64,000 nt of DNA. Source: Octopus vulgaris. Lineage: Eukaryota. The stretch is from positions 50,344,001-50,408,000 of the forward strand of contig OX597831.1 in the NCBI GenBank assembly GCA_951406725.2. Reading direction: 5' to 3'. The notes under the pieces are model-generated. The model was not told the DNA's origin, searched no databases, and worked only from the letters and a program-made list of their open reading frames with translations. A program made the translations under genes and the position numbers. Below are positions 3,108-52,710 of this stretch, piece by piece (position 1 is the first letter of the stretch; each line of letters starts with the position of its first letter).

Positions 3108-3176
<69 letters not shown>

Positions 3177-3461
3177 ATGTCTGTCTGTCTGTCTGTATGC
3201 ATGTATGTATGTATGTATGTATGTATGTATGTATGTATGTATGTATGTATGTATGTATGTATGTATGTATGTATGTGTGCATGTTTGAAAACCGATGCTG
3301 GTGTGTTTACGTCCCCGTAACTTAACGGTTCGGCAAAAGAGACCGATAGAATAAGTACTAGGCTTACAAAGAATAAGTCCTGGAGTCGATTTGCTCGACT
3401 AAAGGCGGTGCTCCAGCATGGCCGCCGTCAACTGACTGAAACAAGTAAAAGAGTAAAGAGT
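2948..3461 (+). mobile_element. tRNA-derived SINE, family 1, with internal (TA)n(TG)n(TATG)n microsatellite
   Basis: A box 'tggctgtgtgg', B box 'ggttcagtcc', conserved 3' module ending 'caagtaaaagagtaaagag'. Four near-full copies occur in the window. Confidence 0.85.
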
Positions 3462-11181: not shown

Positions 11182-12045
11182 CAAGGGTTAAACAAAATAA
11201 TAGAAACACTAGCATCATAGCATCATAATTTTGATTATTTTTATGATTTTGACTTATTTATTAGTGTTGCTTAATATGTTTTGCTAAAATTGTTTGTTTT
11301 TTTTGTTCAGATATCATCAGAAAAAGGTAATTAAAATTCATTAAAATGACACATCTATCGGACTTCCAAAGTGATTAAATTGTTGGTGCCCGTGTGGCTG
11401 GGGCTAGCGTGACGAAGACAGCTGAAATGTTTTGTGTATCAAGAAGTACTCTCTCGAAAGTAATGACACCCTTTGACAAAGAAAACGCCGGAGAAAACCA
11501 AATCTTTGAGATAGGGACTGTCGGAACCTTACGCGGATTGTTAGAAAGGATCACAAAAGTACAGCTCTCAAAATTACTGCAAAGATTAATGACCACCTCG
11601 AAAACCCAGTTCCTACAAAAACTATTCACCGGATTTCGTGGGAGGGCTGCAGTCAGAAAACCCTTACTTTCAAAAATAAACGTTGCAAAGTGTATAGACT
11701 GGAGTAAAAACCTCTAAGACGACTCCTCTTTACTTTATTTCCGACCACCGATCGAGTATACGTGTGGAGACAGCCAAAAAAAGATCACAATATTATTGAA
11801 CATTTATGGTGCATTGTAGAAAAAACAAGTAAAGTGTCTATATCCTCCACCATCATCACTACAAAAATTGGAGACTGTTTTAGCTGAAGAATAGACAAAA
11901 ATCCCTTCGCAAAAAATTCAAACTTTGTTTGAGTCCATACCCCATAGAATTCCAGCTGTAATTACTGTCAAAGGTGGTCCTGCCCGATATTGAAATAAAT
12001 TTGTTTGAAATTTTAAGGTGTTTCTATTATTTTGTCCAGCCCCTG
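11182..12045 (+). mobile_element. Decayed Tc1-like transposon with internal deletions
   Basis: Imperfect ~28-bp TIRs 'caagggttaaacaaaataatagaaacac' / 'gtgtttctattattttgtccagcccctg'. Peptide 'AGASVTKTAEMFCVSRSTLSKV...GRAAVRKPLLS'. Confidence 0.85.
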
Positions 12046-12771
12046 TTTTATTTATAAAAGTCTATTACTTCTTCTATCAGCTTCTCTTGCTAAGCGGGTC
12101 AGTTACGGGGATGTAAACAAATCAACATCAAGTTGCAAACAGTGGTAGGGGCAAAAAAACACACAGTTACACACATACACTCCTGCACACACAAACACAC
12201 ACACATTCAGTAAGGTACTTAAATACCACTTGCTATAATTAGAGCCATCGCTCCAAAACTACCACCAACTCACTGTTAAGAGACACGCGAGCAATGTATT
12301 GAACATAAGAGAAGCAGGCTTACATTGCGTGTCAAACAGTAAGGAAGGTATATTTCAATATCAATCGATTTCAACCACTGTATGAAAAGCATTCTGTGGG
12401 ATCATCAGTTGAAAATAATATTTTTAACATCTATTTCTGAAATATTCATCACATTACCTCGTGTGCATTCTTTACTCTAAACGTCCCCGCGACATTTAAA
12501 ACAAAACTATCCTGATAAACATTTTAAAACCACGATTCAATTGTAGCACCAGTAGAGGTAATTATAAGACCAGAATTAAATTCGATTTAATAAGTAACGC
12601 TATCACCTTCAACTGATTACCAACGCGGGAAGCTTGTTTGAATTAGTTCACTTTGAAAAAATCGCAGCGTAAGGATCCTTAATGAAACTGCATCAACTAG
12701 GATGTATCATTGCATACAGAGCAATACGCAGTCGCTGCAGTAGAAGCATATGTTGGTCATTGTTATATATG

Positions 12772-13174
12772 CTCTTTTACTCTTTTATTTGTTTCAGTCA
12801 TTTGACTGCGGCCATGCTGGAGCACCGCCTTTAGTCGAGCAAATCGACCCCAGGATTTATTCTTGGTAAGCCTAGTACTTATTCTATTGGTCTCTTTTGC
12901 CGAACCACTAAGTTACGGGGACGTAAACATACCACCATCCGTTGTCGAGCGATTTGGGGGGAGGGGACAAACACAGACACACAAACATATACATATATAT
13001 ATACATATATACGACTGGCTTCTTTCAGTTTCTGTCTCCCAAATCCACCCAGACGGCTTTGGTCGACCCGAGGCTATAGTAGAAGATACTTGGCCAAGGT
13101 GCCACGCAGTGGAACTGAACCCGGAACCATGTTGTTGGTAAGCAAACTACTTACCACACAGCCACTCCTGCACC
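12772..13174 (-). mobile_element. tRNA-derived SINE, family 1
   Basis: Reverse complement of the 2948-3461 family. Confidence 0.85.
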
Positions 13175-14276
13175 TAGAAAACTTTTTAATATAAAAAGTT
13201 TTGGTTGTGAATAAATCTCCACTCTCTTCTTGGTTTTCATTTTTACACACACACAGACATGTATATATATACATACATGCGACAGTTTCCGTCTACCACA
13301 TTCTATCATAAGGTGTTGGTCAGCCAGGGGCTATAATAGATGACATTCAGCCCAAGGCCGTAAGATACCGTGCAGTGGGACTGAACCTGAAACTATGTGC
13401 CAGTTTCCTTCATACGAGGTCGGTCAATTTTCACTTTCACTTCCACCACCTCAATAAAATGAAACGGGAGTCGATATAATCGACTAAGCTCAAGCCTGAA
13501 ATATTGCTGGTATTGTTCTTAAATTAGAAACTATTATTAATTAATATGATAGATTGGGATTATCGCTATGGGAGTGTCGTAGAAAATATATTGAGGTATT
13601 TTTTGAAATCAGGTTGAGGTCGAACCGGGTTATAATTTGTCAGTGCGGGATCGATCAAATATAGTCATATAATGAGATCGTTGTAACCGAAAAGCCGGCG
13701 CCACTCTCAAACACGCTGGACTTGTACATATGTAAGAAATTATTATAACTCACATTTATTTTCATATTCATTCGATACTCTATGTTTACGCACGCTCTCT
13801 CTTTCTTTAATTATAATGATAAAAGATATCACCAATGCAACAATGACAGACGATTTCGTTTAAGTATTTCGCTACATACAAACGGATATGCGTGGAGGGA
13901 ATGTGTATGTGTGTGTGAATATTTATTCCAATGCCGTTGGGGAATGAGGAGTCTGATTGTGTTTTCCTCAGAAGGCAATCATACAAATTCTATAGCTTTA
14001 TTCGTAATATGAATTTATTCGCTCATAGCGAATGAACAAACAATTAGCTCATAATAAATGCCAAGTTGAATGAACTATTCAACATTGAAACTTATTAAAA
14101 CACTTGCAACCGATTTGAACAAATGACAGGATCGGTTGTTTTAATTTCTGTAGACATTTCACTCAAGGCAAACCACAAGTGTCCACAATATTCTCGCGAG
14201 CTAAGTTATAAATTAGCATAAGAGACTATATACACTTCCTACATAGGTGTATGTGTGTACGTGTGTGTCTGTCTGC

Positions 14277-18264: not shown

Positions 18265-18675
18265 ACTCTTTTTACTCTTTTACTCTTTTACTTGTTTCAG
18301 TCATTTGACTGCTGCCATGCTGACGCACCGTCTTTAGTCCGGCAAATCGACCCCAGGACTTATTCTTTGGAAGCCTAGTGCTTATTCTATCAGTCTCTTT
18401 TGTCGAACCGCTAAGTTACGGGCACGTAAACACACCACCATCGGTTGTCAAGCGATATTGTGGGGACAAACACAGACACACAAACATATACACACGCATA
18501 TATATGCATATATATATGACGGTCTTTATTTCAGTTTCTGTCTACCAAATCCACATTTATACTATAGCCCGAGGCTATAGTATAAGTAACTTGCCCAAGG
18601 TGCCCCACAGTGGGACTGAATCCGGAACTGCGTGGTTGGTAAGCAAGCTACTTACAACGCAGCCACTCCTGCGCC
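18265..18675 (-). mobile_element. tRNA-derived SINE, family 1
   Basis: Reverse complement of the 2948-3461 family. Confidence 0.85.
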
Positions 18676-18907
18676 TATACATATACATACACACACACAC
18701 ACACACATACACACACACATATATATATATATATACATACATTCATACATACAAACATACAGACATACACTCGCACAAACACTCACACACACACACACAT
18801 CTATATATATATATATACACCCGCAATTAGAAGATAAAAATCATTAAAATTTTTGTCAATGGCCAGGATATGAATAAACCCATTTGGGTAATTACATATA
18901 TAGAGAC

Positions 18908-20984: not shown

Positions 20985-22116
20985 GGGTTGAGCAAAATAA
21001 TGGAAAAACCTTGCATCACAACGTCATCATTTTGAAATATCTATAAAACCGTCAAAAGCTTGTTTCTTTTTATGTGTTTTGATTTATTATTAGTGTTGCT
21101 TAATATGTTTTGCTAAAATTGCTGTTCCTTTTCAGACATTATCAGAAAAGGGTGATTAAAATTCATTGAAATGACACATCTATCGGACTTTCAAACAAAT
21201 TAAATTGTTAGTGCTCGTATGGCTGGCGCGAGCGTAAGGAAAACAGCCGAAATGTTTAGGGTATCAAGAGCTACTGTCTCGAAAGTAATGACAGCCTTTG
21301 AGAAAGAGGAAAAAACCTCTTCGTCGAAACAAAACTCCAGAAGAAAACCAAGACTTTCAGATAGGGACCGCCGGACTCTTTCACGAGAGGATTGCAATCA
21401 GAAAACCGCTGCTTTCAAAAACAAACGTTGCAAAGTGTTTAGAGTGGAGTAAAAACGTAGGGAATTGGTTTCTAGAGCAGTGGAAGAATGTTATTTTCTG
21501 GGACGTGTCATCCATTAGCTTATTTCCGACCACCGACCGAGTATCCGTGTGGAGAGAGCCAAAAGAAGCATTGCATTTGACTCAGACTGCCTTCTCTTAA
21601 ACATAGAGAAGGATCTGTGATGATCTAGGGGTGGGGTTGCTATATCTTGGAAATCCGCCGGCCCAATGGTTTTCCTTCATGGAAGAATAAATTGTGAAGA
21701 GTATTTCAGCATTTTATCTGATCAAATTCATCCTATGGTTTTGGAACTGTTTCCGGAGAGAAACGCATTCTTTCAAGCTCATAAAGTACCAATTCACACT
21801 GGAAAATCGTTACTGAATGGCACAAGGAACATTCTTGTGAAGTTGGACATCTTATTTGACAACCGCAGTCCTCACGTCTCAATATTATGGAACATTTATG
21901 GTGCGTTTTAGAAAAACAAGTAAAGAGTCCATATTTTCCACTAGCGTCACTGCAAGAACTGGAGACTGTTTTAGCTGAAGAATGGATAAAAATTCCTTTG
22001 AAAACAATTACCTCGTAGAATTCAAGCTGTAATTAGTGCCAAAGGCGATCCTACCCCATATCAAAATAAATTTGTTTGAAATTTTAAGTTGTTTCCATTA
22101 TTTTGTCCAATTCCTG
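20982..22116 (+). mobile_element. Decayed Tc1-like transposon, same family as 11182-12045
   Basis: TIRs 'caggggttgagcaaaataatggaaa' / 'tttccattattttgtccaattcctg'. Peptides 'AGASVRKTAEMFRVSRATVSKV', 'WKNVIFWD', 'FFQAHKVPIH'. Inserted at a (TA)n tract. Confidence 0.85.
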
Positions 22117-22167
22117 TCTATATACACATACATACATGCATGCATACATACATACATAGATACATAC

Positions 22168-22791: not shown

Positions 22792-24395
22792 TACATATGT
22801 ACACATATATGTACATATGAATATAGATAGATATATACACACATATACTTATACACACATACATATACATATATGCACACACACACACATATATATGTGC
22901 TTGTATATTCATATATGCATATATATATATGTACATATTTTTACATACATAGACGCACCAACCACCACCAATCCAGAGAAATATCTTGTATATAAATATA
23001 CGTAAATACATATACATTGAGATGAAAAGAGAGAGAGAGAGAAAGAAAAGAGGGAGAATGTGAATGACGATGGAGAGCAATCGTTGCTTAGTAAGTTAAT
23101 TCGTTTATTCTATCGATGAAAACATTGCGTTAATTGAAAAATACCGTATATACAATTATTAGTGAAAACTGTTGTCATTTACCATAGTAATATATACGAA
23201 ATTCAATAATTCTTTCAAGAACTTTCAAAATACTTGGCTAAATATTTAAACATCATTTTTGAACATTCTTTCAAAGTGACATTGGTGGCAATACTTCATC
23301 TATTCAACGGTTTATAAAAGCATTTTTTTCACTAAAGGCACAATGATTGAAATTCTGGTGGGGTTGTGCTAGTCGATAACATAGACCCCAGTGTTAACTG
23401 GTGCTTGGTTTATCGATTCCGAAAAGATGAAAGACTAGGTTGGCCTCAACGGTATCTGAACTCAAAATGTAGTAATTTGCTAAGAGTTTTGGTCGGCGTG
23501 TTAACTATTTTGCCATTTCGCCACTTCTATTCGAAAAAAATTACGCTGAAATTTGTCCATAAAAAAGTTGGACGTGAAATATAATTACGATGTTAGTTTT
23601 TGGACAAATAATTAAACTGATCATCTAAATCACTCCATATCATTTCCATCGCATCTGCCCCTGGTAAATAAATATTGTTCATGATCCATCGACGCTTCAT
23701 ATCTCTCTCGAGATCCGGTATTTATTGATCAATTTATATCGAGTCCAATTTATTTGTTTTTTTTTATTAATGTTCAATTTAATTGACACCTTCATTATCT
23801 AATACTTCGTATGCCCTAAGCTCATCCATACAGAGGCAGACGTGTGTCCGTTCATAACGATCTGTTTCCGATAACAATTAAGAAATGAAATAATACAGAG
23901 ATAGAATATTATAAAGATTATACAAAGCATGTTTTTAACAACCACTTCCTGAATAGAAACCACAAGTATCCTTGCTTCACCTATGTGTGTGAACTACTAG
24001 CAACACATTATAATACACAATCATCTAGCTTGGAGCAAAATGTAAGTCATATAACTTTTGAAGCCTATTACGAAAACTGCTGAGGCTCCGATGGTCTACG
24101 AGATGCATCTGATGTCATTCCATCGCTTCCCACCCACTAGGGACCAGTGCAGAAGGCAGTCGATACGATCGTGAAGCTTCTAGATACACGCCATCTTCCT
24201 TATCATCGTTTATACACAATGTGTAACTAGAAATTCCTTACATAGATCCTGCGAGGAAAGCGCAGTACCGCAGAAGACCCCTGGTAGCGATAAGTAGAAA
24301 ACCTGCGCAGCAGGCACACGACCGGAACATGGTTTGGATAGTGCATTTTAATATATCCTATCTAAACCCTAATATAAAATTTTAATTTAAAACAG

Positions 24396-24481
<86 letters not shown>

Positions 24482-25092
24482 TTTTTATGTGTACAAAAAC
24501 GGAATGGTCAATTGCCAGTTTAGCCAATAAAAACACACGCACTATATATTTGGTGTTAAAGATATTTATTTTTTACATTAATCTTAAAAAGCACATATAG
24601 TGGTCCTTTGTTTTCTTCTCACTTACTTGTGTCTCTCCTTATAATATATATATATTGTATATTTGATAGATAGATAGTGCGTCTATGTTTATTTAGTGTG
24701 TGTGTGGGGGGGATGCCTGTAATATTTGTATCTTCTGGTTATATACATTCTTGTAATTTGTATTTTGTTTTTGTTGTTGTTGCTTTTGTTCTAATTTTGT
24801 TCATGTGTTTACATCCACCCATTATTATCATTACATATGCTTGTATGTATGTATAACAACAATATTAGTAATAATAATAATAAATCTAATCGAGAAAAAA
24901 AAAAAAAGAATATACATATACATATATATATATATACATACATATACATATACATATATATATATATACATATATACACACATATATACACATATACATA
25001 TACATATATATACACATATACATATATATAGATATTCATTTCTATTTCTTTAATTACCTGTGTATTTATTATGTTTGCAGGATCCACTATTG

Positions 25093-28000
25093 TCATATGT
25101 TGTGGTGTGCGCTATTGCTCCATTCTAGTTTTCTATTCAGGCTAGGTTTATTTTCTATTATATGTGTAGCTTCTGTAATTTGTCTAATTGTTGCATCTGT
25201 TCTATGTGTGGACAATATCTTAATCTCTATGTTATTGATTGATCCCCCGTGTTCTTGTTCGGCGTGTTGGTACAGAATCGATGAGCTTTTACCTTCCTTG
25301 AGTTGTCTCCAATGTTCATTCACCCGCTCACCAATGCTTCTTGCAGTTTCCCTACGTATGTTACTGTCTTGTTACTGCATCGTCCCTCTATACATCTTAT
25401 ACTATAGACCACATTTCTGGCTTTACAGTTCGTTTGTGGGCTAAATCTACATACAGTGCAATAGTTTTCCGTACAGAGAGTTCTACTAAAAGGATAGGTT
25501 CTACCAATTATAGATCTGATAGGGTTGCCTGGCTTTTCAACAACCTTAATTCTTAGTTTAAGTTTATCTAGGGTCCTTCTAAAGCGGTACGCTAGTTCAC
25601 CTCCAGGGGTGGTGTCAACGAACATGACACTCTGGTATTTATGGCTATCATACCAAGAGTTGGCCTTCCTTATTTTCTTTTTTGTCCTTTCTATAGTGTT
25701 CCATGACTTGTTCCTATATAGTGGGCAAATCCCATTCCTATCATTACATAATATATTATCAAATTTCTTCATGGCTCCTTTGTATACTCTGATCCTTTCT
25801 TTATGGCTGTAACCTGAGAACTGCATGCGGTGAATGAAATACTGTATGTGTCTCTTTAATTCTGTAGGCTCGCACATGCGTGACACATTTCTCATTATTC
25901 TGACGAGGTCTGCCATCAAAATATTGAATTTGGCATTGCCCGCAATGGCTGAGTTCCGGTGGATCAGGTATTTTGAGGCCATAGGTTTTGCATAGTATGA
26001 ATGAAGGATTTGGGTTTTATTTTTCACAATTTCTAGCCAGAGTTCAGTGTCTAGTACTGGTAGTCTATGGTTGGGGTGTTTAGTGGGGTAGTCTATTGTG
26101 ACCTTAATACTCTGGTGGATGGAGTTAGCTATTTGCTGGATGCTCTCCATAGTATTAGTTTCTATTACTATATCAACAGTACTCTCTTGTGGGGGTGCCT
26201 TTACTACTATATTGGTATCATCAACATAGCGAGAGTACATGTTTACGAGTATGGATTTCTGCAGTAGGCATTCTTTAAGCCTTCTGTCCCACCATACCAT
26301 GAAGAGGTTGGCCACATCACCAGCGATACTAACACCGATGGCTGCCCCCTCGTCCTGGGCATATATTTTATTATTAAATTTAAATGTGTGGCCTTTTAGG
26401 GTAACTCTTATACTAGCTCCTAGTGCATGTGCGATCATTTTCTTTACCTGATGGACATTTGCGGGGCTCCGTATGGCTCTGGTCCATCCGCGCCATCTTT
26501 CTATATGTGTCTTCCTAGCCATAGAAGTAATTGTAGGCGGTCTACCTCTTAAACATCTACTGGGGCAGAAACTACTAAGATTATGTTTATCTAAGTATTC
26601 ACTATTATATGTCAGTCTAAGTAGGAGGCCCAGTTCTTCTGTGTCGACATTACAGAACTCCACCTGGCTCTCGTTGATCATCTCCACGCACTTCTCCACT
26701 GCAAAATCTACGTCAATCGATGGGTATAGGGATACCACATCCATGCTACCTACTATACATCCTGTCAAGTCACAAGTTTTGTTACAGTCACTGATCCTGC
26801 TTAGGAGATCTTCTGTGCTGTCACATACATCAGGTGACATCCTGATTATAGGGCGTATGATCATTGAGAGGAAGTAGGAGATTCTGTAATTGCTAGCGAT
26901 ATTCGCTCCACAGACTGGTCTTGTTGGTGGTCCTGCTATAGGGTCAGTAAAACCTTTATGGTCCTTGCGAAGTCCATACAGTGCCGGGATATCATTGTTC
27001 CAGGCTTGGAAATTCTTTGCAGTACGTTTCTGAGGTCCCAGAACAATTGTCCACATCATCATGTGGGCATTGAGGACCTTTTCTCTCTCCTCATGCGCCT
27101 GTACAGTTGTTACTTTTGTATTGGCGATATGAGGTTGCATTGCCTGGATGTAGTTCGGTAAGCTGTCTATTGACATCCTGCCGGACTTATCCGTGGGAAG
27201 GCATATCACCTCTCCGTTCCTCGTGCGCTGAATGAGCTTCTGTAGGCCACATGCAGGTTTAATCCCTAGTTGTTGGGCATCTGTCTTATTCTGTCTCTGT
27301 CTCTTAATGTATAAACCTAAAATCTGTCTAAGTTTGGTCCTAGCTATAGTGAACTGTGCTTCCATGTGGTCATTAGTACGTCTTGGGATGTATACCCTTT
27401 TGTTGAAGGGTAATGTTGTTGGATAAATTCGGTTCATGCAGTAAGTTTTGTCGCATACGTTGAAGAATTGAGTGTCAAAGGGATGGGTATACATGTCAAT
27501 GGTCTCTCTAGGGTTATCTTCATTATCGTTACTGTTTCCAACATCAGCCTTCCTATTATTATTATCACCATTACCACTACTACTACTACTAGTATTCCTA
27601 TTACCACCACAACTATCACTACTATCCTCATTACTACTTCTACTGTTACCATCACCACTACTACTACCACTATTATTGTTATTACCTTTATTCCTACCAT
27701 TGCCATTATTACTATCATCGCTAGTGATATATTCATTGTTCCTGTTTCTGGTATATGTGTTGTTTATATTAGTGTTGGGTTTTATGTCTGTCTGTTGGTC
27801 CCTGTCAATCCCCTTGTTGCGGTCGTTATTTTTGTTCCTATGAGTATTGTTATCTGTTTCAAGTCCGCTGACTCCCTGTCCAAGGATCCTGTTGCATTCA
27901 ACTTTATTCTCCATCGTGACCCCTATGACCCAACTTTTATTCGTGTTTTTGTGACTATGGCTATCTGTGTGTGTGTTTGTGTGTCGGTTCTCCCTATAAT

Positions 28001-29015
28001 TGTTGTTGTTGTTGCTGTTGTATACGATTTTTCTCTCTCTGTTTGTGTTTTTGTTTTTGTATCTATTGTTTGTGTCTATGCATACATTTTTTCTATTGTT
28101 ATTGTTGTTGTCGCTGTTAGGGTTCGTGTTGTTGTTGTTGTTGCCGCTGTTAGGGTTCGTGTTGCTTTTGTTGCTACGGTTGTTATTGTTGCGGTCATTA
28201 TTGTTTGTGTTGTTGTTGCTGCGGTTAGTGTTTTTCGCGTTGTTGTTGTTGTCGCAAGTGTTGTTGTCATAGTATCTATTTAAATTCCAACGTATTTTTG
28301 TGAACGACTTTTCAATCTCGGACAGGCATTTGATGGTATTCACTTTACTATACACTGCATACTTTGGTGGTAGTTGAAGTATCGATATTTCATCTGGGTC
28401 CGTTGTTACTCCCCCATAGATGTTCGCTTCATTGTCTTTATTGAACTCTTCTGGTAGTAGCACATCTTCCATAATAATTCCATTTATTGTATCTGGATAC
28501 TTCTGCTTTTCTTCCTTTGCGAGCTCATATTGACGTTTCTGTTTCAACCACGATAACTTCCTCTTAAAATGGATATTGCATTGGTGTATTACATGTCTGT
28601 TTTCTTCATATATTATATCCATTATTAAGGTTTTCTCCTTTCGTGTGGTGATACTTTTAATTTCTTTTAAAAATATACGTTTACGCTTCTCTTGTTCGCT
28701 CAGCTCTCTGTATATTCTATTTCTAATATTTACCATTAGCGTCCTTTTTAGTCTTTCCGCTTGTCCGTTAGTGAGGTCAAGCCGTTTAACGTTGGCTGTG
28801 ACCTTGTTGATACATATCCTGGACGAGACACATTGTTTTATAAAACGAAGCTGTTGCGTTGTCCCAGTTTTCTTTAGGCAACAAAATATAGTGTTCTTCA
28901 GCATCTTGCAAGCCTGGCTGTGGCTCACGTTAGTACGTTTAAATATTTGTTGTGCAAGATTTTTTATGTGAAGTCGTGTGTTGAAACAGATATTGTTATA
29001 TTTCGGAATGGTCAT
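25093..29015 (-). CDS. PLE-A polyprotein (N-terminal basic domain, Asn-rich insert, RT, thumb, Cys-rich linker, GIY-YIG), with a 1-nt frameshift near 25350
   Basis: 1231-aa ORF plus the 25093-25323 frame. RT motifs '[12 protein letters not shown]', '[20 protein letters not shown]', 'YSRYVDD', 'LPVLD'. Endonuclease 'VVYSIRC...YVG'. Confidence 0.9.
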
Positions 29016-29111
29016 ATTGCCAGTTTAGCCAATAAAAACACACGCACTATATATTTGGTGTTATTTTGCTTCAGTGATATTTATTTTTTACATTAATCTT
29101 AATCTTATTTC

Positions 29112-29156
29112 GGCCAAAGTTCTTTCGTCACACTCCTGTGACCGCATCAGTGGTCC
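29112..29156 (-). ncRNA. Hammerhead-like motif in PLE-A pseudo-LTR (non-canonical core)
   Basis: Reverse complement of 30729-30773. Confidence 0.5.
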
Positions 29157-29671
29157 TTTGTTTTCTTCTCACTTACTTGTGTCTCTCCTTACTAACCGTC
29201 AGCCATTTTGTATTTCTATTGTATGTCTTCATTTGCACATGCTTATATCTCTATGTGCGTCTATGTTTATTTAGTGTGTGTGTGGGGGGATGCCTGTAAT
29301 ATTTGTATCTTCTGGTTATATACATTCTTGTAATTTGTATTTTGTTTTTGTTGTTGTTGCTTTTGTTCTAATTTTGTTCATGTGTTTACATCCACCCATT
29401 ATTATCATTACATATGCTTGTATGTATGTATAACAACAATATTAGTAATAATAATAATAAATCTAATCTAGAAAAAAAAAAAAAAAGGATATACATATAC
29501 ATATATATATATATACATACATATACATATACATATATATATATATACATATATACACACATATATACACATATACATATACATATATATACACATATAC
29601 ATATATATAGATATTCATTTCTATTTCTTTAATTACCTGTGTATTTATTATGTTTGCAGGATCCACTATTG

Positions 29672-30464
29672 TCATATGTTGTGGTGTGCGCTATTGCTCC
29701 ATTCTAGTTTTCTATTCAGGCTAGGTTTATTTTCTATTATATGTGTAGCTTCTGTAATTTGTCTAATTGTTGCATCTGTTCTATGTGTGGACAATATCTT
29801 AATCTCTATGTTATTGATTGATCCCCCGTGTTCTTGTTCGGCGTGTTGGTACAGAATCGATGAGCTTTTACCTTCCTTGAGTTGTCTCCAATGTTCATTC
29901 ACCCGCTCACCAATGCTTCTTGCAGTTTCCCCTACGTATGTTACTGTCTTGTTACTGCATCGTCCCTCTATACATCTTATACTATAGACCACATTTCTGG
30001 CTTTACAGTTCGTTTGTGGGCTAAATCTACATACAGTGCAATAGTTTTCCGTACAGAGAGTTCTACTAAAAGGATAGGTTCTACCAATTATAGATCTGAT
30101 AGGGTTGCCTGGCTTTTCAACAACCTTAATTCTTAGTTTAAGTTTATCTAGGGTCCTTCTAAAGCGGTACGCTAGTTCACCTCCAGGGGTGGTGTCAACG
30201 AACATGACACTCTGGTATTTATGGCTATCATACCAAGAGTTGGCCTTCCTTATTTTCTTTTTTGTCCTTTCTATAGTGTTCCATGACTTGTTCCTATATA
30301 GTGGGCAAATCCCATTCCTATCATTACATAATATATTATCAAATTTCTTCATGGCTCCTTTGTATACTCTGATCCTTTCTTTATGGCTGTAACCTGAGAA
30401 CTGCATGCGGTGAATGAAATACTGTATGTGTCTCTTTAATTCTGTAGGCTCGCACATGCGTGAC
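29672..30464 (-). pseudogene. 5'-truncated third PLE-A copy: thumb end plus intact GIY-YIG C-terminus
   Basis: Reads uninterrupted 'NVVYSIRC...[16 protein letters not shown]...[10 protein letters not shown]...[17 protein letters not shown]' to the stop codon. Confidence 0.9.
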
Positions 30465-30728
30465 CCAAATCCTTCATTCATACTATGCAAAACCTATGGC
30501 CTCAAAATACCTGATCCACCGGAACTCAGCCATTGCGGGCAATGCCAAATTCAATATTTTGATGGCAGACCTCGTCAGAATAATGAGAAATGTGTCACGC
30601 ATGTGCGAGCCTAAATAAACATAGACGCACATAGAGATATAAGCATGTGCAAATGAAGACATACAATAGAAATACAAAATGGCTGACGGTTAGTAAGGAG
30701 AGACACAAGTAAGTGAGAAGAAAACAAA

Positions 30729-30773
30729 GGACCACTGATGCGGTCACAGGAGTGTGACGAAAGAACTTTGGCC
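30729..30773 (+). ncRNA. Hammerhead-like motif in PLE-A pseudo-LTR (non-canonical core)
   Basis: GG-A-CCA CUGAUGC G GUCACA[GGAG]UGUGAC GAAA GAAC UU UGGCC. Type I layout with C at position 9, one extra G and a minimal stem III. AATAAA follows at 30800-30805. Confidence 0.5.
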
Positions 30774-30869
30774 GAAATAAGATTAAGATTAATGTAAAAA
30801 ATAAATATCACTGAAGCAAAATAACACCAAATATATAGTGCGTGTGTTTTTATTGGCTAAACTGGCAAT

Positions 30870-33800
30870 ATGACCATTCCGAAATATAACAATATCTGTT
30901 TCAACACACGACTTCACATAAAAAATCTTGCACAACAAATATTTAAACGTACTAACGTGAGCCACAGCCAGGCTTGCAAGATGCTGAAGAACACTATATT
31001 TTGTTGCCTAAAGAAAACTGGGACAACGCAACAGCTTCGTTTTATAAAACAATGTGTCTCGTCCAGGATATGTATCAACAAGGTCACAGCCAACGTTAAA
31101 CGGCTTGACCTCACTAACGGACAAGCGGAAAGACTAAAAAGGACGCTAATGGTAAATATTAGAAATAGAATATACAGAGAGCTGAGCGAACAAGAGAAGC
31201 GTAAACGTATATTTTTAAAAGAAATTAAAAGTATCACCACACGAAAGGAGAAAACCTTAATAATGGATATAATATATGAAGAAAACAGACATGTAATACA
31301 CCAATGCAATATCCATTTTAAGAGGAAGTTATCGTGGTTGAAACAGAAACGTCAATATGAGCTCGCAAAGGAAGAAAAGCAGAAGTATCCAGATACAATA
31401 AATGGAATTATTATGGAAGATGTGCTACTACCAGAAGAGTTCAATAAAGACAATGAAGCGAACATCTATGGGGGAGTAACAACGGACCCAGATGAAATAT
31501 CGATACTTCAACTACCACCAAAGTATGCAGTGTATAGTAAAGTGAATACCATCAAATGCCTGTCCGAGATTGAAAAGTCGTTCACAAAAATACGTTGGAA
31601 TTTAAATAGATACTATGACAACAACACTTGCGACAACAACAACAACGCGAAAAACACTAACCGCAGCAACAACAACACAAACAATAATGACCGCAACAAT
31701 AACAACCGTAGCAACAAAAGCAACACGAACCCTAACAGCGGCAACAACAACAACAACACGAACCCTAACAGCGACAACAACAATAACAATAGAAAAAATG
31801 TATGCATAGACACAAACAATAGATACAAAAACAAAAACACAAACAGAGAGAGAAAAATCGTATACAACAGCAACAACAACAACAATTATAGGGAGAACCG
31901 ACACACAAACACACACACAGATAGCCATAGTCACAAAAACACGAATAAAAGTTGGGTCATAGGGGTCACGATGGAGAATAAAGTTGAATGCAACAGGATC
32001 CTTGGACAGGGAGTCAGCGGACTTGAAACAGATAACAATACTCATAGGAACAAAAATAACGACCGCAACAAGGGGATTGACAGGGACCAACAGACAGACA
32101 TAAAACCCAACACTAATATAAACAACACATATACCAGAAACAGGAACAATGAATATATCACTAGCGATGATAGTAATAATGGCAATGGTAGGAATAAAGG
32201 TAATAACAATAATAGTGGTAGTAGTAGTGGTGATGGTAACAGTAGAAGTAGTAATGAGGATAGTAGTGATAGTTGTGGTGGTAATAGGAATACTAGTAGT
32301 AGTAGTAGTGGTAATGGTGATAATAATAATAGGAAGGCTGATGTTGGAAACAGTAACGATAATGAAGATAACCCTAGAGAGACCATTGACATGTATACCC
32401 ATCCCTTTGACACTCAATTCTTCAACGTATGCGACAAAACTTACTGCATGAACCGAATTTATCCAACAACATTACCCTTCAACAAAAGGGTATACATCCC
32501 AAGACGTACTAATGACCACATGGAAGCACAGTTCACTATAGCTAGGACCAAACTTAGACAGATTTTAGGTTTATACATTAAGAGACAGAGACAGAATAAG
32601 ACAGATGCCCAACAACTAGGGATTAAACCTGCATGTGGCCTACAGAAGCTCATTCAGCGCACGAGGAACGGAGAGGTGATATGCCTTCCCACGGATAAGT
32701 CCGGCAGGATGTCAATAGACAGCTTACCGAACTACATCCAGGCAATGCAACCTCATATCGCCAATACAAAAGTAACAACTGTACAGGCGCATGAGGAGAG
32801 AGAAAAGGTCCTCAATGCCCACATGATGATGTGGACAATTGTTCTGGGACCTCAGAAACGTACTGCAAAGAATTTCCAAGCCTGGAACAATGATATCCCG
32901 GCACTGTATGGACTTCGCAAGGACCATAAAGGTTTTACTGACCCTATAGCAGGACCACCAACAAGACCAGTCTGTGGAGCGAATATCGCTAGCAATTACA
33001 GAATCTCCTACTTCCTCTCAATGATCATACGCCCTATAATCAGGATGTCACCTGATGTATGTGACAGCACAGAAGATCTCCTAAGCAGGATCAGTGACTG
33101 TAACAAAACTTGTGACTTGACAGGATGTATAGTAGGTAGCATGGATGTGGTATCCCTATACCCATCGATTGACGTAGATTTTGCAGTGGAGAAGTGCGTG
33201 GAGATGATCAACGAGAGCCAGGTGGAGTTCTGTAATGTCGACACAGAAGAACTGGGCCTCCTACTTAGACTGACATATAATAGTGAATACTTAGATAAAC
33301 ATAATCTTAGTAGTTTCTGCCCCAGTAGATGTTTAAGAGGTAGACCGCCTACAATTACTTCTATGGCTAGGAAGACACATATAGAAAGATGGCGCGGATG
33401 GACCAGAGCCATACGGAGCCCCGCAAATGTCCATCAGGTAAAGAAAATGATCGCACATGCACTAGGAGCTAGTATAAGAGTTACCCTAAAAGGCCACACA
33501 TTTAAATTTAATAATAAAATATATGCCCAGGACGAGGGGGCAGCCATCGGTGTTAGTATCGCTGGTGATGTGGCCAACCTCTTCATGGTATGGTGGGACA
33601 GAAGGCTTAAAGAATGCCTACTGCAGAAATCCATACTCGTAAACATGTACTCTCGCTATGTTGATGATATCAATATAGTAGTAAAGGCACCCCCACAAGA
33701 GAGTACTGTTGATATAGTAATAGAAACTAATACTATGGAGAGCATCCAGCAAATAGCTAACTCCATCCACCAGTGTATTAAGGTCACAATAGACTACCCC

Positions 33801-34792
33801 ACTAAACACCCCAACCATAGACTACCAGGACTAGACACTGAACTCTGGCTAGAAATTGTGAAAAGTAAAACCCAAATCCTTCATTCATACTATGCAAAAC
33901 CTATGGCCTCAAAATACCTGATCCACCGGAACTCAGCCATTGCGGGCAATGCCAAATTCAATATTTTGATGGCAGACCTCGTCAGAATAATGAGAAATGT
34001 GTCACGCATGTGCGAGCCTACAGAATTAAAGAGACACATACAGTATTTCATTCACCGCATGCAGTTCTCAGGTTACAGCCATAAAGAAAGGATCAGAGTA
34101 TACAAAGGAGCCATGAAGAAATTTGATAATATATTATGTAATGATAGGAATGGGATTTGCCCACTATATAGGAACAAGTCATGGAACACTATAGAAAGGA
34201 CAAAAAAGAAAATAAGGAAGGCCAACTCTTGGTATGATAGCCATAAATACCAGAGTGTCATGTTCGTTGACACCACCCCTGGAGGTGAACTAGCGTACCG
34301 CTTTAGAAGGACCCTAGATAAACTTAAACTAAGAATTAAGGTTGTTGAAAAGCCAGGCAACCCTATCAGATCTATAATTGGTAGAACCTATCCTTTTAGT
34401 AGAACTCTCTGTACGGAAAACTATTGCACTGTATGTAGATTTAGCCCACAAACGAACTGTAAAGCCAGAAATGTGGTCTATAGTATAAGATGTATAGAGG
34501 GACGATGCAGTAACAAGACAGTAACATACGTAGGGGAAACTGCAAGAAGCATTGGTGAGCGGGTGAATGAACATTGGAGACAACTCAAGGAAGGTAAAAG
34601 CTCATCATTCTGTACCAACACGCCGAACAAGAACACGGGGGATCAATCAATAACATAGAGATTAAGATATTGTCCACACATAGAACAGATGCAACAATTA
34701 GACAAATTACAGAAGCTACACATATAATAGAAAATAAACCTAGCCTGAATAGAAAACTAGAATGGAGCAATAGCGCACACCACAACATATGA
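30870..34792 (+). CDS. PLE-A polyprotein, second full-length copy, with a 1-nt frameshift near 34606
   Basis: 1262-aa ORF; YVDD at 33657-33668; GIY-YIG 'VVYSIRC...[16 protein letters not shown]'. One G is missing relative to the other copies (ctcatc-attc), and the consensus stop TGA is at 34790-34792. Confidence 0.9.
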
Positions 34793-35187
34793 CAATAGTG
34801 GATCCTGCAAACATAATAAATACACAGGTAATTAAAGAAATAGAAATGAATATCTATATATATGTATATGTGTATATATATGTATATGTATATGTGTATA
34901 TATGTGTGTATATATGTATATATATATATATGTATATGTATATGTATGTATATATATATATATGTATATGTATATTCTTTTTTTTTTTTTCTCGATTAGA
35001 TTTATTATTATTATTACTAATATTGTTGTTATACATACATACAAGCATATGTAATGATAATAATGGGTGGATGTAAACACATGAACAAAATTAGAACAAA
35101 AGCAACAACAACAAAAACAAAATACAAATTACAAGAATGTATATAACCAGAAGATACAAATATTACAGGCATCCCCCCACACACACA

Positions 35188-35465
35188 CTAAATAAACATA
35201 GACGCACATAGAGATATAAGCATGTGCAAATGAAGACATACAATAGAAATACAAAATGGCTGACGGTTAGTAAGGAGAGACACAAGTAAGTGAGAAGAAA
35301 ACAAAGGACCACTGATGCGGTCACAGGAGTGTGACGAAAGAACTTTGGCCGAAATAAGATTAAGATTAATGTAAAAAATAAATATCACTGAAGCAAAATA
35401 ACACCAAATATATAGTGCGTGTGTTTTTATTGGCTAAACTGGCAATATGACCATTCCGAAATATG

Positions 35466-35473
<8 letters not shown>
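35188..35473 (+). repeat. Right-terminal pseudo-LTR of PLE-A (direct repeat of 30611-30895), with hammerhead-like motif at 35306-35350
   Basis: Identical at offset 4577. It runs through the ORF start codon (ATGACCATTCCGAAATAT) and ends in (TA)n. Confidence 0.9.
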
Positions 35474-35543
<70 letters not shown>

Positions 35544-35589
35544 TAGATAGATAGATAGATAGATATTATGTATAAGTGTATAGCTATAT

Positions 35590-40626: not shown

Positions 40627-43600
40627 GGACGTACCCCACAACCGGAATATTCCAACAGATGGCCATCCATGCTCATCACCAAATAATCAAAAGAAAAAGA
40701 AGGAAAAATGGTCTAGGGAAGATAATAAAGAAGTTCTTGAGGCCTTCTACCATGCCATATATTTCCCCACAGATAAGTCTAGCACTGTACAAGCATACTT
40801 AAACTGGAGACAGAAACACCCTGAAGTAAGACCCTACATAGACAGTAACAAGCTTGCCAATGTTAGAAGAAACATTATAAAAAAGAAATTACTGACTGAG
40901 GTAGAGATTGATCAGGTTAGACAAGCAATATCGGATAAAATGAACGAAGCTGCAGCTAGAGAAGATAATACAGAGGAAATGATTATAGACCAGCCCAGGG
41001 CGGATAAAAACGAAGAGAGGATTGAAAGAGTTAGTATAAGTGATAGGCAAAGTGAAATACTCCCTGAACCAATCATAAACACTAAGACAGATGAGCATCA
41101 AATAGATAAAGAAAGTCACACAAATATTGACCCAACAGAACTACATGAGCTAAAAAATCAAATCATGATTGAATGGCTGAAAATTAAAGAAACCAGCATG
41201 GATGAGCGTGATACACTTCCTAAAATCCGCAACTCTAACCAAAACATGAAAATAATTGGTAAAATCCGGCTTGCACTTAAGGATATAATTTCAGTTAATG
41301 ATGTTGATATCACAAACCTCAACCACCTATACTATGCATCCGCGAAAATCTCAACGATCCTATGTGGTGTAAAGATTAGAAACGGCAACAGTCCCACAAA
41401 AAGCCTCCTTGGCAAGAGCGTCTGCAACAACAAATTAAAATATTTAGATCTGACATTGAATATTTGAAAAACCTTAAGGCTCACAAAACTACCAAACCTA
41501 CAAAAACCCAAAAATTACTGAAAAAATACAATATGAAAACTATACTTGATATTGATGCCACCATAGAAACCATCAAACAAAAGGTATCTGCCAAAGCTGC
41601 CCGCATAGCGAGGTATGAAAAGCGTGTTAGATTTTTCAAGGACAACAACATGTTCAAAAATAACACCAAGAATTTTTACAGGAAGATAGGAAAAACAGCG
41701 TTTACTGCAGGGTCTGTACCATCAAAAGAAGAAGTGCAGAGATTTTGGAATAAAATCTGGGCAGAAGAAAAAACACACAACGAAAAGGCCCCCTGGATTG
41801 ACAGAATATCTACAGAACTGGACCCCTTAGAAGAGCAAAAGTGGGAGGGTGTCAAGGTAGAAGATATAAGATCTGCTCTCAGGAGGTCAAGCAAATGGAA
41901 GTCTCCAGGAAAGGATAAAATTCCTAACTTCTGGCTGAATGCCTTCCCAGAGAGCCATGAACTGCTAACAGAACTGTACAATGATGTTTTGCAACACCCT
42001 AGTAGGATGCCTCCTTGGCTAGTTAATGGGTTAACATTCCTGCTTCCAAAAAGTGAAGAAACAAATGAACCAAAAAACTATAGACCCATAACCTGCTTAA
42101 CAACTATGTACAAAACACTAACATCTGTCCTGACAGAATATACCTGTAGTTTTTTAACAGACAGCAGCATATTCCCTAATGAACAGAAACGATGTAAACG
42201 TGGATCCTACGGCTGTAAAGACCAACTACTCATCAATAAGATGATCTTAGAAGATTGTCACAAACTACACAAAAACTTATCAATAGCCTGGATAGACTAT
42301 AAAAAAGCTTTTGATAGCCTACCACATAGCTGGATTAGGAAATGCCTTGAAATGTATAAGATAGCATCAACTCTGCGAAACTTCTTGACTGTAAGTATGA
42401 GATCATGGAGAACCACACTAACTCTGAACAGTGACAGTGAATCCCTAAATGCTGGTGATGTAAAAATTCCGTGTGGCATTTTCCAGGGTGACTCACTGTC
42501 ACCACTCCTCTTTTGTTTATCGTTAATACCTCTCTCAAAGCTGCTCGATGACGCGCAGTACGGGTATAAAATGTTTGATAAAAATATAAATCATCTCGTT
42601 TACATGGATGATTTAAAGCTTTTTGCAAAAAATGATCAACAACTCAAGGGCTTACTAGCGATAGTCAAACAATTCAGTGACGACATCAGAATGCAATTCG
42701 GCCTCGATAAATGTGCAAAGGCTACCTTTATCAAAGGAAAAATGACAGAAACATCTAACGTTAACCTTGACCAACAGAATGTCATAAAAGAACTAGACCC
42801 AGCGGAGAGCTACAAGTACCTAGGGGTAATTGAAGGGAACGGAATAAGGCATTCAGAGATGAAGGAAAGGATCAGGAGAGAATGCTATCGAAGAGTGAGA
42901 GCAATACTCAAGACAGAGCTGAATGCAAGAAACAGGATCGAAGCGATCAATGCATTAGCTATACCAGTCGTGACTTACAGTTTCAATATTGTTAACTGGT
43001 CAATTACTGAAATATGTCAGCTCGACAGAAAAATAAGGAAACTGTTGACAATGCATAGAATGCACCACCCTAAGGCAGATACAGAACGACTCTATCTGCC
43101 AAGAAAAGAGGGAGGCCGTGGTCTTTTGCAACTGGCAATAACAATGAAGATTGCTACAATTGGCCTAGACACCTACCTGAAAAACTCTGCGGACTGGATG
43201 TTAAAACTTGTCTCAAAACATGAAAACAAGAAAGCACCATACTCAGTCACAAAACAAGCAAATGAATATCTAAGTGAATTCCGAATACAACCAATTTCGG
43301 AATTAGAGATAGATATACAAGAAACAAGCACAGAAAAAGCTAGGCGCATGAAAACCCGTGCCAAAACTGCGGCCTTAGATATTCTGAATAATAAATGGTA
43401 AGAAAAACCTCTCTATGGCAAATACCCTACCCAAAGAGAGCGAATAATGCAGATATCGACAAAGCCCTGACCCATCAATGGCTAATGGCCTCTGGCTTAA
43501 AATCTGAAACAGAGGGGTTTATCATAGCAGCTCAAGATCAATGCCTACCAACAAGAAACTACCAGGCCAACATATTAAAGATCAGAAGCAGTCCAACGTG

Positions 43601-49824: not shown

Positions 49825-50199
49825 TATTAGAGACAAAATATATATATGGAAAATAAGACAATTTAGAAATGCTAATATAATTTTATCGTGAAGAGCATTT
49901 TAGAAGCAGTTTCAATCTTTGCAACTTTTTCAACTTAGAGGAAAACATGAAAAGCAATTAAATTGGGGAAAAATTAGATGAAATGTTTATTTTCTAAAAC
50001 AACGCCATAGTTTCAAATAGGTGGGACATTTTCCTTTCTCTCTCTCTCTCTCTTTCTCTCTCGCATACTTTTGTGAAATCTCAGTAGCTAGTTAGTAGCA
50101 GATTTGAAGAAATATGTAATATGAGAGATGCTGGTTCTGGATTTCGATTGTTTAAGCAGCATTATCCCCATCCAAGAACCCGTAACATAAATCAAAATT

Positions 50200-52710
50200 A
50201 CAGGGCACTCCACAACAACAGGGAACAACTACATAACAGATACCATCCCAATCACCTCAATAATTTTTTTAGACCCATTACGCAAATACAGTGATACCAG
50301 ATAGCACCAGATATACAGGATAAATCAAAAGTCATCATTCTAACATACAAAGAACTGACACTGAACCAAATCAACATACACTCCAAAGGGTCATTCACTC
50401 GCGTAAATTGTTTTTGGTTTGGCCTATGTGTTGCTCTCAATATCCGGAGCAAGTTAACACATATTAGGCTTTCCGTTGGCCTTGTTTGAAAGAGAACTCC
50501 GATCCCTCAATTAGCTCGACACATATACCACAGTTAGGTTTTCCGCAAGTACACACGTCAACCCACCCCAACGCCCCATCTACAACGAAATGAAAGAAGA
50601 CGTTGTGGAAGTCTGTAGAAAATTACGCCTCACCGAGGAACTATACGACAAATACGAGTACGAATCGTTAGCCCGAATTAGAAGTAACTACAGCAGTTCA
50701 AAAGGTAAGAACACATTTCTTGACTATTTTTTTGAACACCTCACGAATTACCCATGTCAACACATGCACAAATAAAAACACAAACCAAACTTCGGCAAAA
50801 GAAGACTGGACTGAGCCGAAGAGATTAAAGGATGATAAAACTATAACAACCAAAGAGACTGATAAAGGTCGTGCAGTTGTCCTAAGGGACACAGTATACT
50901 GTGTAACTCTAGTACTCTCCATATTCGAAGATACAACGTATTACGATAAGATGCAACACTACAGTCAGCAGAAAATAATGAAAAACCTAAAGACTATGTT
51001 AAACCTATACAGAGAAGAGCTCGCCGACAAAGAATACGACTATATGATTAACTTCAAAAGTAAATCCAATCAATTCTACGGTATTCCCAAGATACACAAA
51101 AGTGAGAAAATAAGTAACGCATGCGGGTGAGCCATAGATATAATAACATAATAGTCAAGGTACCTACTCCTAATGAAGTCAAATTAAGACGTATAATTAT
51201 AGGTCCCGCGTGCAAAACCCACCACCTCAGTAACGTTTTAGATACTCTCTTAAAACCATTTCTCAGACATATCAAAAGCTACAATAGGGACGACTTAGAT
51301 ATGCTCAATCACCTCCACGAAACAATGAATAAAACACCCTACTAGTATCCATCGATGTAGTCAAACTCTATTCTAATATCCTGCAGAGCGTAGGAATAGA
51401 GACAATCTAATTCTGGTTAGAGAATTACTCCAACGAACTCCCACACCGCATCAAAAAAGAATTCGTAATAGCAGAGATAATTTTCATCATGGAGTATAAC
51501 TTCTTCGTCTTCAAAGACAACTTCTATCGACAAAAATTGGGGCCTGCGACGGGTACGAGAATGGCCGCTTTTGCTAACCTAGTCATGGGATATGTAGAAA
51601 TCAGTCTTTATCGTAAGGTACTAGAAAAATACGGCAACCCATTCTTTCTCTACATAGAGAATAACTGGAAGTAGTACCTGGATAACTGCTTCAAACTTTG
51701 CCATGAAAGTATGGAGAGACATAAAGTATTTCAAACACTTTTAAACGGACTTGACATAAAAATTCAATTTAAGATAGAATATAGCCATCAACTTCCATTC
51801 CTCGACATCCTTAATAAGAAATCCAGTAACAAGATAAAAACAGACATATACTATAAGCCAATGGACTCCACACAATAGCCACCATTAAACTCATCCTACC
51901 CCAGACACACTAGAACGAATATCTCCTTCAACCTAGCAACAAGGTTTGTACTATAGTTCCTAATACAAGAACCAGGGACACACGACTACATGAACTAAAG
52001 GATACACTCATCAACAGGAACTACCCACCATCACTACCTGATATAGGCTTTCAACGTGCCCTACATATCAACATCCACGAACTCAGAGATCCCAATCTAA
52101 AGAAGGATTTACAACCAAAAGCCCAACTATACATCACACACAACCCCCTTAATAATAAAACATTCGCCTCCATCCTCAAGAACATTCCTTTACTAAAATG
52201 TGTCCACAGAATGAATCTAATCCTCCAGACGCACACTATCATAAACAGCAAAAGACTACTCAAGTTAATGAAAAGTCTTCTGAAACAAGCCCAAGTGTAC
52301 ACGTCAACAACACTAAAACTGTCAGTAAAAAAAATGCGGAAAACCTAACTGTGGTATGTGTCGAACTATTTGAGGGATCGGAGTTCTCCTTCAAACAAGG
52401 CCAACAGAAAGCCTAATATGTGTTAACTTGCTCAGTGTGTCGAGAGCAATACATAAGCCAAGCCAAAAACAATCTACGCGAATGAATGACCCTACATAGA
52501 TCCCAGATTAAAATTCAGGAATACAGAAAAATAGCATTTAGTCAACACACCGACATTTGCGCCACTAACGAACAACCTAACTTAAGAATTTTTCCCCTCT
52601 ATAAATTCAAGGACAATCCAACCTATAATCACCGCATTAGCAAAGAGTCATATTTTATCGCAAAATATAAACCCATTCTACCACAAATGACATTAATGCA
52701 AGGGTCTTAG
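50200..52710 (+). mobile_element. Decayed near-full-length PLE-C (RT + GIY-YIG)
   Basis: 'KETDKGRAVV', 'FYGIPKIHK', 'LVSIDVVKLYSNI', 'NFFVFKDNFYRQKLGPATGTRMA..FANLVMG', 'LPFLDIL', 'KTDIYYKP', 'QYISQAK...MTLHRSQI...ESYFIAKYKPIL'. Many frameshifts. Confidence 0.85.

Follow-up and report, generated by a model that had tools for sequence, protein, structure and literature searches.

Introduction

The standard footprint of a Penelope-like element (PLE) is a partial tandem, with an adjacent inverted and 5'-truncated copy and a tail of 30-40 bp at one end (Craig et al. 2021, PMC8557442). In Adineta, inverted copies are most often placed head to head, and Asn-rich inserts in the open reading frame (ORF) and long tandem or inverted structures have been reported (PMC3846280). 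How PLEs build arrays of tandem and inverted copies is named as an open question (PMC8557442), and the single in vitro PLE system stops at initiation (PMC11167929). The subject of this work is an array of PLE sequence of about 11 kb in Octopus vulgaris, located in a stretch of 64,000 nucleotides (assembly GCA_951406725.2, contig OX597831.1, positions 50,344,001 to 50,408,000 of the forward strand), which is called the window throughout.

The array resembles endonuclease-bearing (EN+) PLEs (Craig et al. 2021, PMC8557442, Fig. 2; Pen2a and Pen3 of Adineta, PMC3846280) in having pseudo-long terminal repeats (pLTRs), a partial tandem, a head-to-head inverted copy, a one-sided tail and microhomology at the joints, together with a hammerhead-like motif in the terminal repeat, a (TA)n target and an Asn-rich tract in the ORF. 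It differs in that the inverted copy is described as 5'-truncated in EN+ PLEs, whereas that of the array is a full unit plus a repeat; in that an extra internal fragment links the two halves; and in that the Asn tract, which in EN+ PLEs lies between the reverse transcriptase (RT) and the thumb or nuclease, is here upstream of the RT. A second system for comparison is Poseidon_Ac of the green anole (PMC11167929), which likewise has internal start sites in the 5' part of the ORF that bound the tail, AT-rich targets, and extension of both strands. It belongs to another clade, with no Cys linker, and its starts are at +111 to +118, as against the +26 and +58 inferred here. The accessible portions of the literature searched, which included PMC12910113, PMC6431247, PMC13282606 and 10.64898/2026.07.22.740005 and to which the key papers of 2005/2006 do not belong, contain no description of a full-length inverted PLE partner. 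The array is a real-looking but unverified extreme of the known PLE layout, and it is only in size that it is extreme.

Layout of the array

The features of the array are listed here in window coordinates. L and R are the left and right arms, M and F the two parts of the spacer between them, and J1 and J2 the joints at either end of F. Element positions are given on R throughout, and ORF+n denotes position n of the ORF.

24392..24477: left target, (CA)n and then (TA)n microsatellite
24479..24696 (-): 3' terminal repeat of L and long tail, stopping at ORF+58; gapped, with AT-rich fillers, hammerhead core absent
24697..25279 (-): 3' untranslated region (UTR) of L, with TA/TG-rich microsatellite, T-run and out-of-frame nuclease end
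25320..29015 (-): ORF of L, 1,231 amino acids (aa) in the assembly; GIY-YIG frameshifted at 25352
28990..29274 (-): 5' terminal repeat of L, 285 bp, identical to the 5' repeat of R; hammerhead-like core from 29150
29275..30464 (-): M, 5'-truncated upstream tandem copy; the sole copy with an in-frame nuclease C-terminus
30463..30464: inversion joint J1 (M to F), with 2-bp AC microhomology
30463..30613 (+): F, 151-bp inverted fragment, equivalent to element 33870-34020
30611..30613: joint J2 (F to terminal-repeat start), with 3-bp CTA microhomology
30611..30895 (+): 5' terminal repeat of R, 285 bp
30729..30773 (+): minimal type-I hammerhead-like motif, 6-bp stem II
30870..34658 (+): ORF of R, 1,262 aa in the assembly, with TERT-like RT; nuclease frameshifted at 34607
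33215..33495 (+): insertion of about 70 aa between RT motifs A and B (bounds approximate)
34410..34658 (+): Cys linker C-x4-CxxC-x7-C and start of the GIY-YIG nuclease
35188..35472 (+): 3' terminal repeat of R, short end (ORF+26); hammerhead-like core from 35312
35473..35565: right target, (AT)n, (AG)n and (AGAT)n microsatellite

Self-comparison of the window shows that R (plus strand, 30611-35472) consists of a unit of 4,577 bp followed by a terminal repeat of 285 bp, and that L (minus strand, 29274 to 24690) is its reverse complement, the arms of 4.58 kb being 99.8% alike. Agreement this close over 4.6 kb far exceeds what chance would give. An initial annotation of the window had proposed reverse-complementary arms of about 4.6 kb, a spacer made entirely of the element, and the order pLTR, ORF, pLTR and partial ORF (all minus), inverted fragment, and pLTR, ORF and pLTR (plus), and all of this is borne out. 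Its left boundary, 24501, is corrected to 24479.

The 1.3-kb spacer is element sequence throughout, made up of M and F. M (minus, 30464 to 29275) runs seamlessly on from L and begins at element position 34001, while F (plus, 30463-30613) has 100% identity over its 151 bp to 33870-34020 in both arms. Both outer ends of the array adjoin (AT)n. The centre contains no microsatellite or target remnant, and outside the array and simple repeats the window holds no further copy of the element.

Joints of the inverted fragment

At J1, the start of F (33870) meets the start of M via AC, with four of five bases alike, and there is no palindrome at the joint. At J2, the end of F (34020) meets the start of the terminal repeat via CTA, and 1,167 bp of the element are skipped. 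Splicing is ruled out as the cause of this skip, J2 having no GT donor. The end of F overlaps the start of M (34001) by 20 bp, or by 15 without the microhomologies. Such closeness of F and M would be found by chance in about 1% of cases on a 4,577-bp unit, a figure that was computed for 23 bp and concerns one case, noticed post hoc.

This arrangement is reminiscent of L1 twin priming, in which a further primer pairs with an internal site of the RNA already in use and the two complementary DNA (cDNA) ends anneal by short homology (10.1101/2024.08.27.596794, PMC2912911, PMC12350158, 10.1101/2024.12.14.628481). The internal duplications of L1 have a median of 22 bp (10.1101/2024.08.27.596794), and microhomology occurs at both joints (PMC2912911). 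In the array, similarly, the outer end of the inverted segment lies within about 20 bp of the stop of the opposite cDNA, with a small duplication; the apparent internal priming point adjoins that stop, and both joints carry microhomology. The two cases differ in that it would be a full-length cDNA, and not target DNA, whose end served as internal primer in the array, in that the array has no poly(A) and no visible target duplication, and in enzyme class. A target-site duplication would here be hidden by the microsatellite target. By analogy with L1, the F/M overlap and the joint microhomology have the geometry of twin priming, which argues for one event. A literature search for twin priming in PLEs, which did not extend to the key PLE papers of 2005/2006, found no description of it.

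Differences between the arms

Alignment of 30611-35195 with 29274-24690 gives four substitutions and three one-base indels, an eighth event being an end effect of the alignment that was left uncounted. The four amino-acid differences that had been noted between the arms are present, at 33670, 33774, 33829 and 33865; the indels, at 25352, 34607 and 24712, had been put at two. All four substitutions are private to R and non-synonymous, and they span 196 bp (P = 3e-4 under random placement). The cluster (33670-33865) stops 5 bp short of 33870, the position at which F starts. The idea that these substitutions had been polished in from reads spanning J1 was dropped, only 33865 being matched by eye.

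The frame of L breaks at 25352, directly after the YVG of GIY-YIG, and that of R at 34607, ahead of the HxxxxH, E and N residues. Each long ORF is thus frameshifted inside the nuclease, and the description of two complete ORFs is wrong for the sequence as assembled; the nuclease end is in frame in M only. The family contigs described below list no indel at the equivalent positions of M at a 5% share, so that each frameshift is private, being either a new mutation or a consensus error. The indels private to L are not present in R. Near the T-run in the 3' UTR (29469-29488), M departs from both L and R at three sites, reflecting either a different source unit or homopolymer error.

The outer ends are also unequal. 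The left tail stops at ORF+58 and the right at ORF+26, making the left end 32 bp longer. The left terminal repeat has 219 bases against the 317 expected, arranged as six exact blocks with five gaps, four of which are filled with short AT-rich sequence that keeps scraps of the missing bases. An origin from an old, decayed solo repeat is ruled out by the intact blocks, which are without substitutions. Missed or miscalled bases in the second arm of an inverted duplication are a known failure of nanopore sequencing (PMC7229812), and the gapped tail is probably a sequencing failure, likeliest of this type if the window was read by nanopore. The terminal repeats of R are without a scar except for one substitution at 35465.

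Contigs of the family were available from two runs, X1 and X2, which cover all 30 bins of the element. Contig depth over the 5' part of the ORF is 599 in X1 and 1,959 in X2, against about 23 and 58 for rare contigs, which hints at a few dozen long copies, depth not being copy number. The raw-read runs X21 and X22 cover 6 and 12 of the 30 bins, mostly with repeats or diverged pieces, and are uninformative. It may be added that X21 and X22, which carry the same species label as X1, are without the element at high identity; the label or the population may differ.

A proposed origin from two primed ends

On the basis of these observations, we propose, while giving it slightly less than an even chance, that the array is one young insertion of an Octopus PLE into (AT)n, in which both cut ends were primed and the cDNAs were joined by a step resembling twin priming. 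The left end would prime at the outer start site, ORF+58, and copy a whole unit, its cDNA then continuing into an upstream tandem unit (M) as far as element position 34001. The right end would prime at the inner site, ORF+26, and copy a whole unit to the start of the terminal repeat. The 3' end of this right cDNA would then jump, via 3 homologous bases, to the RNA serving as template on the left, at a point 20 bases behind the end of the left cDNA, and be extended by another 151 bases (F). Finally, the two cDNA ends would anneal via 2 to 4 bases, each serving as template for the second strand of the other. The anole PLE cuts AT-rich DNA and extends both strands in vitro from two internal start sites that bound the tail (PMC11167929), and a tail at one end is the description of a single PLE insertion unit (PMC8557442).

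The layout, the joints, the overlap, the end offsets and the class of element are observed; the enzymatic steps, their origin in a single event and the full physical length of the right arm are inferred. The initial annotation had already suggested a single recent event primed from both target ends. The one-sided tail, the empty centre, the 20-bp overlap of F and M and the bases shared by the arms are further evidence for it, beyond what that annotation had to go on, the event itself staying at the level of a proposal. The shared bases are at 31021, 31938 and 31955, where L and R agree and all of the X1 and X2 contigs compared read otherwise; they point to one source. The asymmetric spacer and the differing flanks are unlike a fold-back read.

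Several observations weigh against this account. In X1, a set of short-read contigs, the depth on both sides of J1 comes from single canonical contigs and J1 is unbridged, perhaps owing to a different animal or a dropped contig. None of 16 displayed pieces, out of about 500 in X1 and X2, bridges J1 or J2, a count made with a filter that drops records and undecidable for X2. The palindromic loose ends in X2 are presumably proximity-ligation linker, and the single loose end there of head-to-head type, at 30469, was given no weight. In the family contigs the R base is unsupported at 33829 and hardly supported at 33774, and at 33865 it is unsupported in the one X1 contig displayed across the site. 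These unsupported bases, the indels and the gapped left tail indicate that the local consensus is probably imperfect. The bases shared by the arms could be shared consensus errors or mark a minor subfamily, contigs being prone to drop rare variants. Nothing marks 30611 as the 5' end of an RNA, and copying of L by fold-back explains the identity of R and L almost as well.

The geometry of the F and M joints leads to a countable prediction, namely that the two coordinates should track one another across copies of the family, as they do in L1 twin priming. Such tracking would separate two-ended priming from self-priming on genome data alone.

Alternative origins

The main rival is that there was indeed one event, with only the left end primed. 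The 3' end of the cDNA would have snapped back on L, giving F, jumped to the 5' repeat of L and copied L into R, after which it was joined or cut at ORF+26. This would account for the agreement of R with L both near the T-run, where M is different, and at the bases that the arms share. Self-priming has been put forward as the source of head-to-head joints in PLEs (PMC3846280), and resolution by the nuclease as the source of the tail (PMC8557442). The joint, however, is without a palindrome, two jumps are needed, the 20-bp overlap of F and M is explained only loosely, and the indels of L were not copied into R, although these are possibly assembly errors. We consider this origin unlikely.

It is also conceivable, at a rather lower level of probability, that the real allele is of the ordinary kind, made up of L, M, F and an inverted repeat of 285 bp, and that the R unit was inflated in assembly by chimeric reads or mis-resolution of repeats. 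The ordinary form is what PLE papers draw, and such structures are known to trouble assemblers (PMC8557442); both arms contain private errors, and no bridging contig was seen among the 16 of about 500 pieces. Against this, two template switches at terminal repeats would be needed, R has a clean short end of its own, and the loss of bases at the outer end of L is what a physically present, long inverted repeat would suffer on passing a nanopore (PMC7229812), if that was the method used for the window. Were the right arm an assembly product, the locus would be an ordinary PLE insertion, and the joint geometry and the question of lineage would remain.

More improbable still is a history in which the short form was inserted first and R was added later at the DNA level, either when a break in the inverted repeat was repaired with L as template or when a second copy homed into that repeat. 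The final layout would be the same. The clustered substitutions of R fit error-prone repair synthesis. The PLE nuclease can moreover nick its own repeat (PMC11167929). This history requires another rare event very soon after the first, the arms being 99.8% alike, and the repeats of R show no scar beyond the substitution at 35465. Two independent insertions in opposite orientation into the same microsatellite, with or without a later central deletion, are very improbable: the family is young, multi-copy and targets (AT)n, but no target remnant lies between the copies, one end is long and the other short, and the F/M overlap and arm-shared bases are left unexplained.

Identity of the element

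The element was annotated as a PLE, and this identity is supported: it has a TERT-like predicted fold, a C-terminal GIY-YIG, terminal repeats with a hammerhead-like motif, and an (AT)n target. The best protein match, P0001, is a predicted protein of Octopus vulgaris identical to L in 796 of 796 residues, and because this identity includes the frameshifted end it is not independent evidence. A guess that the start of P0001 is spliced from the UTR of M was not confirmed. In Pfam, GIY-YIG (PF01541) matches M at E 5e-4, just below the curated cut-off, and nothing matches the long ORFs, RVT_1 included. The motif residues of GIY-YIG are nevertheless conserved in an alignment of 69 rows. A model of the RT and nuclease generated from 69 sequences has a mean pLDDT of 91. 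In Foldseek, ranks 1-7 all go to TERT chains, which also make up 15 of the 17 highest VIA rows, with a best Z of 15.5 and an rmsd of 3.4 over 265 residues, and the RT is, as modelled, telomerase-like. Neighbours of the protein in the ESM Atlas are clusters with HTH_animal, RVT_1 and DUF8422, and a sequence search of the PDB returned no PLE among its matches. One further Octopus gene model, P0096, has an RT fragment of the element fused before a leucine-rich-repeat F-box protein, and is probably an annotation chimera at another locus.

Upstream of the RT, and in frame, is an Asn/Ser-rich tract of low complexity, about 250 aa long (31620-32370, plus strand; approximately aa 250-500). Its richest 100 aa contain 49 Asn, compared with at most 22 in the 120 protein matches.

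The three intact terminal repeats carry the hammerhead-like motif, in which both stem I and stem II fold (z -1.5). At core position 9 they have C in place of A, at 30741 and 35318 (plus) and 29144 (minus), and in X1 most family contigs read C, not T, at 30768, the predicted cleavage position. Rfam gives only low-complexity microRNA matches and no hammerhead. Minimal hammerheads with a bulged base before helix II are usual (PMC4209133). Among related metagenome loci (55 examined of 73 fetched), nine have a sense-strand match to a loose, uncontrolled hammerhead pattern, and four of the 55 have an unaltered core 3' of the match; position 9 stays A in the relatives L002, L004, L005 and L031. L004, a distant relative, also has at its 5' side (1-61) an inverted copy, 61 bp long, of its hammerhead-bearing end (3126-3186). 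Terminal direct repeats are present in L001, L002, L006, L020, L026 and L031, and may reflect tandem arrays or assembler overlap.

A candidate lineage with a long fingers insertion

In the array element, the aspartate of motif A and the glycine of motif B are 131 aa apart. The distance is 127-138 aa in all 110 measurable first matches (of 120), 120-164 aa in 69 measurable representatives (of 148), and 60-63 aa in all 90 measurable controls of canonical type (of 119, mostly coral near-copies). The rows of Fig. S1 of Craig et al. (PMC8557442), counted by eye, give 60-63 aa for Penelope, Poseidon, Nematis and Neptune, about 84 for one Naiad and about 118 for human TERT. The insert, of about 70 aa, has conserved residues of its own. 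A profile search gave 3,212 representatives at E <= 1e-30, not all of which belong to the insertion-bearing lineage. This lineage (P0002-P0120, P0240-P0387), which has a C-terminal nuclease, is large and mostly environmental.

Other marks of the family vary more among relatives. The spacer of the Cys linker is 7 aa in the array element. Among the 91 relatives (of 120) in which it could be measured, 56 have this same length, and a minority have 17-26 aa. The element has DKS, where among 120 relatives TDKS is found in 89 and DKT in 12, and RW, where P0002 has RWK. Six family motifs have no match in the supplement of Craig et al. (PMC8557442). Three others match there only in Hydra or Chlamys rows, and KDHK has 15 matches, of which the two displayed are Hydra. 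In a tree of 30 rows, with the insert columns retained and P0108 dropped for want of an anchor motif, 18 family rows are split by a 100/100 branch from six rows of canonical type, which are coral and flatworm PLEs, and six unnamed rows in which no nuclease was seen. The tree was made without named Neptune, Nematis or Hydra rows.

Comparison with the described groups is as follows. Penelope/Poseidon have no Cys-rich linker, whereas the array element has C-x4-CxxC. Naiad/Chlamys have an N-terminal nuclease and an insertion of 20-40 aa, and the nuclease here is C-terminal. Neptune has a long Cys linker (about 25 aa after CxxC) and a canonical RT, in contrast to the 7-aa spacer and 131-aa spacing here. 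Nematis is alike, by eye against Fig. S2, in its C-terminal GIY-YIG, CX2-5CxxC linker with a 7-aa spacer, CCHH with HxxxxH, and nuclease end, and differs in its canonical RT, which has no fingers insertion and an A-to-B spacing of about 63 aa in the row counted, and in having DKG rather than DKS. Hydra elements are similar in the KDHK, DK(S/T) and RW(K) marks of the RT region, in the (TA)n target, in a hammerhead or hammerhead-like motif and in aquatic hosts; they are without CCHH, have a CxCX5C linker and no fingers insertion, and are under 3 kb, the array element being the opposite in these features and 4.6 kb long. In telomerase RT and Naiad/Chlamys the insertion is at the same A/B position, and the insert here is within the TERT length range, a likeness of position and length.

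By its sequence features, the element is a candidate for an undescribed PLE lineage, with a nuclease resembling that of Nematis and some RT marks resembling those of Hydra. Counting against novelty are a short Cys-rich insert at the A/B position in Pen3 and Pen5a of Adineta (PMC3846280), sporadic such regions in Coprina (PMC8557442), and the chance that the family is already in Repbase. No description of a PLE with a C-terminal nuclease and a fingers insertion was found in the literature searched, which excluded the key PLE papers of 2005/2006 and Repbase.

The fingers insertion had been taken as a trait of telomerases and of PLEs with an N-terminal nuclease. A large lineage with a C-terminal nuclease and a longer insertion, if real, would bear on the evolution of both PLEs and telomerase. 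The fullest reading, which we regard as possible though on balance doubtful, is of a widespread and undescribed aquatic PLE lineage, combining a C-terminal nuclease of Nematis type with a fingers insertion of telomerase length, together with a locus that directly records priming at two ends, two full-length cDNAs and closure by twin priming. If true, it would explain how head-to-head PLE arrays arise.

Predicted consequences and the rest of the window

Further consequences had been predicted for the array, and the present analysis gives them no support. Double-stranded RNA of kilobase length was expected from read-through; both ORFs point outward and their own sense transcripts are not complementary, so that a hairpin RNA needs read-through across the centre. 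As regards an ADAR substrate or hyper-editing, two of five substitutions private to R are A to G, with no editing series. A cruciform-prone site is argued against by the 1.3-kb spacer, spacers of this length disfavouring cruciform extrusion.

Pfam, run on 145 of 153 filtered frames and on three long frames outside the array, gave no coding exon of the host anywhere in the window, although short exons would be missed. The 145 filtered frames gave one RT remnant, at 6832-7230 (minus). The long frames gave a mariner-type transposase remnant at 7482-8237 (plus; Transposase_1, HTH_48) and a long ORF of a non-LTR retrotransposon (long interspersed nuclear element, LINE) at 40628-43401 (plus; RVT_1), in two frames. 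A second and unrelated hammerhead, with a canonical core, is present at 62931-62971 (minus), some 150-190 bp from (TA)n at 62746-62779, and is likely a terminal-repeat or retrozyme stub. Nested inverted repeats occupy 50066-53090, where arms of 139 bp, 90% alike, surround 1.8 kb and lie within arms of 99 bp, 80% alike, with no Pfam match inside. Finally, older dispersed repeat families, with 78-87% identity, are found at 11223-12046 and 21052-22117, and at 12772-13176, 18275-18677, 61438-61849 and 2934-3461.

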